NCBI GenBank assembly: GCA_038858525.1 | Contig: JAWCFL010000010.1 | Coordinates: 30,001-62,000, forward strand | Reading direction: 5' to 3' | Source of the DNA: Candidatus Jordarchaeales archaeon | GTDB lineage: Archaea; Asgardarchaeota; Jordiarchaeia; Jordiarchaeales; Freyrarchaeaceae | DNA length: 32,000 nt | In this document: positions 29,292 through 32,000 of the stretch, piece after piece | Layout: each line of letters begins with the position of its first letter | How positions within the stretch are numbered: the first letter of the stretch is position 1 | Position numbers and translations under genes: made by a program | Notes under the pieces: model-generated | What the model was told of the DNA's origin: nothing | The model's input: the letters and a program-made list of their open reading frames with translations, nothing else | The model's database searches: none

Positions 29292-29386
29292 CAACACACT
29301 AAACCACCCAAAAACAATAAAAATAAAAAGCAAAAAAAGACACTATAGCAATGTGCGGCCGTCGTCTAGCCTGGACCAGGACGTAG

Positions 29387-29403
29387 ACCCGACAGGGGCG
29401 AAT
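29387..29403 (+). other. tRNA intron 1 (17 nt, position 29/30, relaxed BHB)
   Basis: A-CCC(GACA)GGG-GCGA-AT. Central helix ACGT/GCGA (3 of 4 pairs), bulges AG^A and AT^G, outer helix GG/CC. Confidence 0.7.
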
Positions 29404-29426
29404 GCCCTCCAAGCCTGCGACCCGGG

Positions 29427-29454
29427 TGACGCGCTACGACGGCGCGTCCGGGAA
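29427..29454 (+). other. tRNA intron 2 (28 nt, position 53/54, canonical BHB)
   Basis: T-GACGCGC(TACGACG)GCGCGTC-CGGG-AA. Perfect central helix CCCG/CGGG, bulges GG^T and AA^T. Confidence 0.88.
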
Positions 29455-29760
29455 TTCAAATCCCGGCGGCCGCATCATCACTATTAATTGACTTAATTTT
29501 TATGTAAGCCTTTTTAACGTAGTGTCGTCCACATTTATCTATCTTTGAGTTTGTATGTTCTGTCGGCTTTTATTGTGACGGGTGCTCGTAAGGAGGTTTG
29601 CCATAGAGAAGTTTTTATGTTAAAAATTGAGAATTTAGAAGGAGGTGTGTTTTTTAGGGTATTATTATGCGGAAGTGTGAGGTTTAAGGGTTGAACCCAG
29701 AGCAGTTGGCTGTCGTGATTGCTTCTACACTCCAAATTATTGCCGAAGCGTGTTTTTCGT

Positions 29761-30756
29761 TCAGATTTCTTGCATGGCTTTTCGGAGTATTTCTTCCGCC
29801 ATCTGTCTTGTTGTAGCGTTGCCGCCCAGGTCAGGGGTCACTTTCACTCCTTCAGCTACCACGCTTAACGTGGCGTTTCTGAGCTTTTTGGCCTGGGTGG
29901 TGTATCCTAAGTGATCGAGCATGAGCGCGGCTGCCAGTATTATGCCTGCCGGGTTCGCTATTCCTTTGCCCGCTATGTCTGGTGCGCTTCCATGTATTGC
30001 TTCAAACATCGCGTGCTTGTCTCCTATGTTAGCGGAGGGGCATAATCCTATGCTTCCCACAATACCGGCGCATAGGTCCGAGAGGATGTCTCCGAACATG
30101 TTTGTCGTTAGAATAACGTCGAAGCGCTTTGGGTCAAGGACTATATTCATCGCTGCGGTGTCTACGTGCATTTCCTCAGTCTTGATTTCAGGGTAGCGTG
30201 AAGCGACTTCAAGACATGTTTCCCTAAAGAGGCCGCATGTCTCTTTCATCACGGTTGCCTTGTGTATTATGGTAACCTTGCGTCTTTTCATCTGTGACGC
30301 CATTTTGTAGGCGTACTCGGCTATTCTTCGAGACCCTTCGCGAGTTATCACGCGCACTCCTATGGCGACGTCGCGAGACACCCTGTATTCGATCCCCTTG
30401 TATAGGTCTTCGGTGTTCTCTCGGACTAGAATGACGTCCATCTTTCCCGGATACTGGAAGGGGCGCACGTTAGCGTAAAGGTCCAACGCCTGTCTTAACG
30501 TGACTACTACGCTTTTCGGGCTTTTGGGACCAGGAGGCGTCTCTGTTGGACCCTTAAGCACAGCATCGCAGGACGCTGCGAGCTCTATTGCCTCCTCTCC
30601 TATGAGGAGGCCGCGCCCAGTTTTCTTCATGTAGTCCAAGCCGGCCTCTATAGGGATGAACTCTACCTGTGGTACTATCTTGCTGAGAATTTCAATTGTT
30701 ACGGGGACTATTTCGTGCCCTATGCCGTCCCCTTCGATGTATCCTACTTTTGCCAT
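29761..30756 (-). CDS. leuB: 3-isopropylmalate/isocitrate-family beta-decarboxylating dehydrogenase
   Basis: [38 protein letters not shown] and [18 protein letters not shown]. Exact substrate not determinable from sequence. Confidence 0.85.
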
Positions 30757-31279
30757 GGGAATCGCCCATGTTTCTTGTAGTATTCCGACAGCCCTCCTGA
30801 CTCTACGATCTCCATTAGGAAGTCAGGTATAGGGTTAGCGCGTAACTCAACGCCACGTGTTATGTTATATATGCGTCCTGTGCTCACGTCAACCTCCAGC
30901 TCGTCTCCTTCCTCAACAGCCTTGGTTATCCCTCTGCATATGAGGAGGGGGAGACCGACGTTGAACGAGTTGCGGTAGAATATTCGAGCGAAGCTTTCAG
31001 CTATGACCATTGAAACGCCTGCATACTTGAGAACCAGTGGTGCCTGCTCCCTGCTTGACCCACAACCAAAGTTTTTCCCGGCAACTATAATGTCTCCTTT
31101 CCTCACTTTCTTAGAGAATTCAGGGTCTATGCCCTCCATGGCATGCCTGGCAAGCTCATTCATATCGAGCGTCTTAAACTTGTACTCTCCGTGTAGCCCG
31201 CGAGGCGAGGCTACATTCCAGGTATGATGTAATCCGTGTTGACGTCATCCGGAAACTTCCAAACTCTACCTTTAATCAA
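30744..31279 (-). CDS. leuD: 3-isopropylmalate dehydratase/homoaconitase small subunit, interrupted by a 29-nt insert; join(31279..31216,31186..30744) gives 168 aa
   Basis: The TTG start overlaps the leuC stop and has GGAGG 7 nt upstream. Exon 1 is [21 protein letters not shown] and exon 2 is (K)[16 protein letters not shown]...[11 protein letters not shown]...SFARIFYRN. Confidence 0.85.
31187..31215 (-). other. Candidate BHB-type intron in leuD mRNA (29 nt)
   Basis: Insert TGTAGCCTCGCCTCGCGGGCTACACGGAG forms a hairpin and contains an in-frame TAG; its removal restores the frame and IIPGKY. Confidence 0.65.
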
Positions 31280-32000
31280 GACTTTTCCTCCCTTGGATCG
31301 CTTATTTCTCCGGTTACCGCCGCCAGAGCAGCGGTGTGGGGTGATGCGAGGTATATTTCAGCCTCATCGCAACCCATTCTCCCTTTAAAGTTTCTGTTCG
31401 CCGTCGAAACGACAACATCGCCAGGAGACGGAATTCCCTGGTGGGTTCCTACGCACGGACCACATCCCGGATTGCAGACCGTGGCGCCTGCCTTGATGAA
31501 TGCTTCTATCAGTCCTTCCCTTAGGGCTTTAAGGTAAACTTCTCTGGATGCAGGCACTATTATCGTTCTCACCTTAACCTTTCTGTCCTTCATTACTCTT
31601 CCAGCTATTCTGAGGTCTTCTATCCGCCCATTAGTGCAAGTTCCTATGAAGACTTGGTTTACAGGAGTTCCTTCAACTTTCTCTATTGGTTTAACGTTGT
31701 CTACGGAGTGGGGGCATGCAACAACTGGAACCAGGTTCCCGGCGTCGATTTCAAGCTTCTCGCTGAACTCAGCATCCTCGTCGCTCGCCAACAGCTCGTA
31801 TCCCTCAGTAATTTCCCTCTCCTTGAGGAAGCCCACCACCTTTTCATCTGGAGCTACGAGACCGGTTTTGCCTCCCATTTCCACAGCCATGTTGCAGAGT
31901 GTCATCCGGCTATCCAAGCTGAGCTCCTTCACCGTACTCCCCGTGTACTCAACTGCCATGTAAGTGGCTCCGTCAGCTCCAACCTTGCCGATAACAGTTA
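31276..32000 (-). CDS. leuC: 3-isopropylmalate dehydratase/homoaconitase large subunit, C-terminal part; 5' end lies outside the window
   Basis: The frame is open to the window edge (TVIGKVGADGATY). RMTLCNM, FIGTCTNGR, PGCGPC, STANRNF and YLASP. Confidence 0.92.
   Translation of the reverse strand, partial: TVIGKVGADGATYMAVEYTGSTVKELSLDSRMTLCNMAVEMGGKTGLVAPDEKVVGFLKEREITEGYELLASDEDAEFSEKLEIDAGNLVPVVACPHSVDNVKPIEKVEGTPVNQVFIGTCTNGRIEDLRIAGRVMKDRKVKVRTIIVPASREVYLKALREGLIEAFIKAGATVCNPGCGPCVGTHQGIPSPGDVVVSTANRNFKGRMGCDEAEIYLASPHTAALAAVTGEISDPREEKS

Follow-up and report, generated by a model that had tools for sequence, protein, structure and literature searches.

Comparative evidence for a spliced tRNA-type intron in a leuD-family gene of a Jordarchaeales archaeon

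A leuD-family gene of a Candidatus Jordarchaeales archaeon is interrupted by 29 nt that very probably represent a genuine spliced intron of the tRNA type, gained on the stem lineage of its family, cut by a heteromeric endonuclease and joined by RtcB. The gene is located in a stretch of 32,000 nt (hereafter the window; positions 30,001 to 62,000 of contig JAWCFL010000010.1, assembly GCA_038858525.1) from a metagenome-assembled genome of 2.09 Mb. The initial annotation of this DNA had already read the insert as a spliced intron, and this reading of the sequence is strongly supported by comparison with relatives. The case is built on the anatomy of the insert, the conservation of its cut geometry, intron-less orthologues, selection on the exons, the genes for the enzymes and fellow introns in the same genome.

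Before splicing, CUGG (the Pro-Gly codons of exon 1) would pair with ACGG from the 3' end of the intron to form a central helix flanked by two 3-nt bulges, with the intron folded into a hairpin and the exons held together by a short helix. A heterotetrameric splicing endonuclease would cut after the second base of each bulge and RtcB would join the exons, and the joined mRNA should read ...IIPG-K-YKF... and encode a normal subunit of 168 aa. The intron seems to have been gained in the ancestor of the window's family, after the split from the sister family, and to have persisted through speciation. Actual cleavage and ligation, as well as the enzymes that act, are what we infer here.

Architecture of the interrupted gene

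Exon 1 (31216..31279, (-)) starts with TTG and comprises 21 codons plus the first base (A) of a Lys codon, while exon 2 (30744..31186, (-)) supplies the last two bases of that codon, 146 codons and the stop. The insert between them (31187..31215, (-)) has the coordinates and sequence described initially. Read unspliced, exon 1 runs for 21 codons to ...NTDYIIPG and continues into ATG TAG, with the stop after 22 codons, and each unspliced reading meets a stop within a few codons. Excision of 31215..31187 joins A and AG to Lys and yields the proposed open frame of 168 codons with ...IIPG|KYKFKTLD at the junction; the corresponding spliced RNA junction is predicted to be CCUGGAA|AGUACAAG. The list of open reading frames begins the remainder of the gene at 31163 (Met30), in another frame than exon 1, as had been noticed before, and the reported Shine-Dalgarno motif is present, with GGAGG preceding the TTG at 31279. 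Relatives carry ATG or GTG at the position of this start codon (31277-31279).

Exon 2 covers positions 26-156 of the 157 positions of NCBIfam model TIGR02087 (184.8 bits), and the N-terminal 25 positions therefore come from exon 1. The name leuD stands only in part: the gene belongs to the LeuD/DmdB archaeal small-subunit subfamily, and it is used here as a family label only since the NCBIfam models cannot tell isopropylmalate isomerase from homoaconitase. Exon 2 alone reaches 173 bits on the leud model (cut-off 245.85) and 169.7 on HacB2 (cut-off 230), passing solely the subfamily model TIGR02087.

The flanking genes were rightly described as intact, and both are co-directional with leuD in 5/5 genomes of the family. 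Upstream, the 3' part of a large-subunit gene (leuC/hacA family, NCBIfam hacA_fam / IPMI_arch; 31276..32000, (-)) overlaps the start region of exon 1 and leaves the window; a large-subunit gene precedes leuD in all 11 genomes of the order. Downstream, a dehydrogenase gene (leuB/aksF family, NCBIfam LEU3_arch; 29761..30756, (-)) overlaps the leuD stop region; its counterparts in the four other genomes of the family run in the same direction and share 77-90% identity. In the sister family (loci L007-L012), the gene 3' of leuD is LeuB-like but lies on the opposite strand, with an identity of only 44%, so the two families do not share the leuC-leuD-leuB operon. A search of the genome found no further copies of the leuD intron, which is present as a single copy.

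The bulge-helix-bulge (BHB) layout drawn initially is found base by base. On the exon-1 side (31218..31224, (-)), the outer helix strand UAC (31224-31222) precedes the central helix strand CUGG (31221-31218), which consists of the Pro-Gly codons, followed by the bulge AA^U (31217-31215). The 3' side (31183..31192, (-)) comprises the central helix strand ACGG (31192-31189), the bulge AG^A (31188-31186) and the outer helix strand GUA (31185-31183). Between the two sides, the intron hairpin (31193..31214, (-)) pairs GUAGCC (31214-31209) with GGCUAC (31198-31193) across a loop of 10 nt. The intron consequently contains the third base of the 5' bulge, the hairpin, the 3' strand of the central helix and the first two bases of the 3' bulge.

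On its own, the fold of this sequence convinces only modestly. Three pairs and one mismatch make up the central helix (C-G, U.G, G-C, G.A), which is the relaxed form of the motif, and the outer helix has just 3 bp. The fold z-score of the single sequence is -1.83, with 9 of 200 shuffles folding equally well, and the BHB conformer lies 1.9 kcal/mol above the minimum-energy fold, in which the bulge U pairs with the mismatched A and which would suggest a frame-breaking register of 30 nt. It is conceivable on these grounds that the intron is real in the family while splicing of this particular allele is inefficient or uses the wrong register and the allele is heading for loss: the mismatch is the only one in the central helix among eight leuD alleles and the alternative fold with a 3-bp helix is the more stable one. 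However, a purine-purine mismatch occurs at the equivalent position of the central helix in the aIF5B intron of this genome, which needs the equivalent register to restore GHIDHGK|T, so the enzyme must accept such a geometry for an essential gene. In addition, dN/dS between this genome and its nearest relative is 0.05, and we consider decay of the allele very improbable. The G.A pair, raised initially as a caveat, is thus softened by the aIF5B case. C occupies this position (CCGG) in a relative with 96% identity in the called LeuD product (exon 2), hence the A is a recent C-to-A change.

Insert alleles across the order

The GTDB order of the window contains 11 species in two families, with five genomes in the window's family and six in its sister. 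An insert is found at the identical leuD codon in 5/5 genomes of the window's family, and three extra alleles were obtained from independent public run assemblies by protein search and contig look-ups; near-identical leuD alleles occur in the Logan runs SRR25243437, SRR24425229 and SRR32459161-3. As five genomes assembled independently and three additional run assemblies all have the insert, an assembly artefact, which the initial annotation had wished to see checked, is excluded. The eight distinct alleles measure 23, 25, 27, 27, 27, 29, 29 and 30 nt, with the length variation confined to the hairpin, where length and sequence of the loop differ while the base of the stem is kept.

All eight alleles share a central helix of four positions, two 3-nt bulges and an inner hairpin, and a strict BHB (two 3-nt bulges, 4-bp helix) is formed by seven of them, with central helices of CCGG/CCGG, CUGG/CCGG or CUGG/CUGG; the strand ACGG is found in this genome alone. 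The inner stem has 5-9 bp throughout and the outer helix 3-4 bp (93-96% paired), the central helix is 95-97% paired across alleles, and overall 93-96% of the cells are paired vs 20-42% in a control with the partners slid. When the alleles were folded together without guidance, the consensus showed the central helix, one 3-nt bulge and the inner stem. In individual genomes, the full motif is the minimum-energy fold once (G004), lies within 1.1-1.9 kcal/mol of it in three others and 4.9 kcal/mol above it in G001. The proposed rule of cutting after the second base of each bulge holds without exception: it produces the Gly|Lys-Tyr junction (...IIPG|KYKF...) in 8/8 alleles, matching the intron-less orthologues. 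Eight alleles at the same codon that all keep the fold make the comparison decisive where the single sequence is not. The compensatory stem changes suggested for relatives were found in part, with two pairs altered on both sides, but they are few because the stems are mostly conserved within the genus, and covariation proper is weak: the observed score was reached by 4 of 500 shuffles in one alignment (A1) and 19 of 500 in another (A2), with sequences that are few and related.

The varying lengths also bear on translational recoding, in which the mRNA is never spliced and the ribosome bypasses the insert from a GGA take-off to a downstream GGA landing codon, shifts frame or reads through the stop. 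The layout has some resemblance to gene 60 of phage T4, where ribosomes bypass a short coding gap after GGA with a nearby stop and a hairpin: here, a stop and a hairpin closely follow GGA, another GGA lies 29 nt further along, and the exon-2 frame is open back through the insert. Unlike gene 60, the leuD alleles vary in both gap length and take-off codon, and lengths of 23, 25, 27, 29 and 30 nt would demand a different event per species. Instead of matched take-off and landing codons across a fixed gap, we found gaps of 23-30 nt and two alleles with a GGC take-off that could land only on GGA. As the lengths fall into all three classes modulo 3 and GGC occurs in two alleles, no single frameshift, read-through or hop fits. 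Moreover, hopping in this genome would give IIPGEYKF where every intron-less orthologue has K, and recoding does not account for the fold and cut rule that eight other genes share with leuD, which renders it extremely unlikely.

Intron-less alleles, for which the initial annotation had proposed an alignment of relatives, exist in all six genomes of the sister family. These lack the insert and read IIPGKYKFKTLD, i.e. exactly the junction predicted, so that sister-family leuD equals the predicted spliced product letter for letter. Among 190 LeuD-family loci from genomes and metagenomes, only the five of the window's family have no in-frame N-terminal part, apart from three others that end at contig ends; the control loci are at most 63% identical, as the lineage itself is absent from these collections, and served as intron-less controls only. 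No full-length (spliced) protein at least 79% identical was present in the protein collection, which is a weak negative since one would need an assembled transcript. One full-length homologue with 72% identity bears the name Candidatus Jordarchaeum in NCBI.

Selection on the exons

Relaxed selection on the exons had been named as a sign of a pseudogene, but the reverse was observed. Pairs of intron-bearing alleles have dN/dS of 0.04-0.07, with dS ranging from 0.7 to saturation, and exon 1 alone has pN of 0.02-0.06 vs pS of 0.32-0.97. Such strong purifying selection with synonymous sites near saturation, exon 1 included, implies that leuD is not a pseudogene. A disruptive insertion with one of two paralogous small subunits taking over would agree with the unspliced reading that ends after 22 codons and with the two further LeuD-like genes of this genome (C22:16781-17173 and C15:41553-41939). 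However, the paralogues are retained also in the intron-less sister family and are therefore not replacements, the insert has been retained at one codon in two genera, and the neighbouring genes are intact. We give this explanation next to no credence.

It is somewhat less far-fetched, though still very unlikely, that the protein is split, i.e. that exon 1 yields a peptide of 22 residues that works together with a separate product of 139 residues beginning at Met30, or that only the latter is made. Met30 is conserved and gene callers predict exactly the 139-aa product. Codons 23-29 (KYKFKTL[D/N]), located between the insert and Met30 and without a start codon in most alleles, are nevertheless conserved at the protein level with synonymous changes, and the N-terminal strand that would be missing is part of the family profile (positions 1-25). 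A split protein also leaves unexplained why alleles of different length retain one fold and cut geometry. All public gene calls of this leuD lineage (P0002-P0011) are 131-151 aa long and start at Met30 or at an ATG within the intron; nr lists one of them as Bathyarchaeota. N-terminal truncation affects all database proteins with at least 79% identity, and automatic annotation and completeness estimates for this lineage are therefore systematically wrong at such introns.

Splicing machinery

The genome encodes two EndA subunits and a ligase. The catalytic subunit (C3:81808-82389) has the Tyr/His/Lys triad and matches the C-terminal repeat of two-domain enzymes, while the structural subunit (C43:5666-6262) is without the His and matches the N-terminal repeat as well as a beta-subunit model; RtcB is located at C1:35280-36587. 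Judged by these matches, the predicted arrangement of the endonuclease is (alpha-beta)2. Asgard and TACK archaea are reported to have (alpha-beta)2 EndA with a loop tied to broad specificity and the cutting of relaxed motifs (PMC5829648). By analogy with the breadth described there, the predicted endonuclease of this genome should be able to cut relaxed motifs outside tRNA.

Further introns in the same genome

The initial annotation had proposed scanning the genome for other frameshifts repaired by BHB excision, and eight further mRNA introns were verified. They interrupt cbf5 (C1:177182-177211; 30 nt, canonical, at the catalytic Asp codon of GTLDP), the gene for EF-2 (C4:81118-81146; 29 nt, splitting DTPGHV|DF), the aIF5B gene discussed above (C1:147521-147549; 29 nt, splitting GHIDHGK|T), rpl44e (C1:178227-178256; 30 nt), dnaG (C21:14222-14252, (-); 31 nt), hypD (C44:4886-4901, (-); 16 nt, CG|THE, detected by a motif scan), a gene for an Fe-S cluster protein with a C..C..C...CP motif (G000:C2:18526-18552, (-); 27 nt) and a membrane-protein gene (G000:C3:105835-105865, (+); 31 nt). 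All eight genes are repaired by the excision rule seen in leuD. In cbf5, EF-2, aIF5B, rpl44e, dnaG and hypD, the cut after the second bulge base restores a conserved motif. All nine mRNA introns checked, leuD included, have A-R^N as their 3' bulge.

We screened by homology against ORFs from 78% of the genome of the sister-family member Freyarchaeum; a lenient threshold gave many false hits, and a case was kept only if identity was strong to the left and right of the junction. Intron-less Freyarchaeum orthologues confirmed 5/8 of the further introns. The genes for leuD, EF-2, aIF5B, dnaG, rpl44e, the Fe-S protein and the membrane protein are continuous in Freyarchaeum and interrupted here, each with a BHB at the exact junction. 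A de novo BHB scan with open-frame and codon-usage filters was tried as a counting method and dropped because real introns did not stand out from background: similar numbers passed when the 3' cut was moved by 1-2 nt (303 vs 269-316). The scan also missed the EF-2 and aIF5B introns since their outer helix is unpaired.

Two side observations concern other patterns of interruption. Across the order (loci L197-L211), cbf5 is continuous in some species, whereas in others, from both families, its match is split or contains an in-frame TGA, which suggests that its intron was gained or lost within the order. A dehydrogenase-like gene (G000:C15 near 37605-37662, (-)) carries a 74-nt insert relative to its Freyarchaeum orthologue, flanked by an 11-nt direct repeat (GTGCCAGGAGC) and unlike the small hairpin introns.

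The leuD intron likely belongs to a larger set of obligatory tRNA-type introns that interrupt protein-coding genes throughout the genome in the window's Asgard family. This proposed set would span the essential translation factors EF-2 and aIF5B, cbf5, primase-like DnaG and a ribosomal protein, together with hydrogenase maturation and amino-acid metabolism, with several members, leuD included, gained after the split from the sister family. If so, close prokaryotic relatives of eukaryotes would be actively inserting endonuclease-dependent introns into coding sequence, and a large share of their proteome would depend on EndA and RtcB.

Comparison with known systems

To our knowledge, for more than 20 years no archaeal protein-coding gene other than cbf5 has been known to depend on the tRNA-splicing endonuclease. 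With leuD as a second host gene, unrelated to cbf5 and with a gain that can be dated, the phenomenon would not be peculiar to cbf5; the leuD gain can be dated because the intron is present in one family and absent in its sister. In an Asgard host with tRNA genes already known as unusually intron-rich and at least eight other interrupted mRNAs, intron gain in coding sequence becomes testable among the prokaryotes closest to eukaryotes.

The cbf5 pre-mRNA intron was described in Crenarchaeota (Watanabe 2002; Yoshinari 2006; Yokobori 2009, PMC2738675). As in that case, the leuD intron is short, lies in a coding region, has a BHB of the often relaxed kind, restores the frame on excision, is linked to a hetero-oligomeric splicing endonuclease and occurs in some lineages but not in others closely related to them. 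In contrast to cbf5, its host encodes a subunit of a metabolic enzyme and not an RNA-modification enzyme, the lineage is Asgard (Jordiarchaeia), and the genome has at least nine such mRNA introns instead of one. Reviews to 2020-2025 cite cbf5 as the sole coding-region case (PMC7714728, PMC12397907), and our literature search found no reports of coding-region BHB introns beyond it. A 5'-UTR BHB intron of Haloferax volcanii, HVO_1309, is an mRNA substrate of the splicing endonuclease in vivo and in vitro (PMC7714728). Unlike the leuD intron, it is located in an untranslated leader, so that the protein is independent of its excision, and the host is a euryarchaeon with a homodimeric enzyme.

The leuD intron resembles HAC1/XBP1 of eukaryotes in being short, frame-changing and non-spliceosomal, with structured cut sites and, as predicted for leuD, exons joined by a tRNA ligase. 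In HAC1/XBP1, Ire1 cuts stem-loops under stress regulation and tRNA ligase (RtcB in animals) joins the exons, whereas the leuD intron has a BHB in place of stem-loop sites and is predicted to be cut by EndA and not by Ire1.

The closest counterparts within the lineage are tRNA introns. Freyrarchaeaceae, Jordiarchaeaceae and Atabeyarchaeia have non-canonical, multiple tRNA introns, and the first two families, both within Jordiarchaeia, an extreme tRNA intron load (PMC11291895; bioRxiv 10.64898/2026.10.13.758758); both texts deal with tRNA genes only and make no mention of mRNA or coding-region introns. Lineage, size class and architecture are the same as in the leuD intron, and all are presumably cut by the same enzymes. 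One strand of the leuD central helix is made of codons, however, and is therefore under protein constraint, unlike in tRNA introns.

The window itself contains an interrupted tRNA gene, tRNA-Gly(UCC), at about 29354-29476 (+), 1.7 kb from the leuD intron, with introns of 17 nt and 28 nt. ARAGORN reported no tRNA in the window and recognised tRNA-Gly(UCC) only once both inserts were removed. The 28-nt insert (about 29427-29455) is located at the T-arm and has a central helix of CCCG/CGGG and a hairpin, much like the leuD intron.
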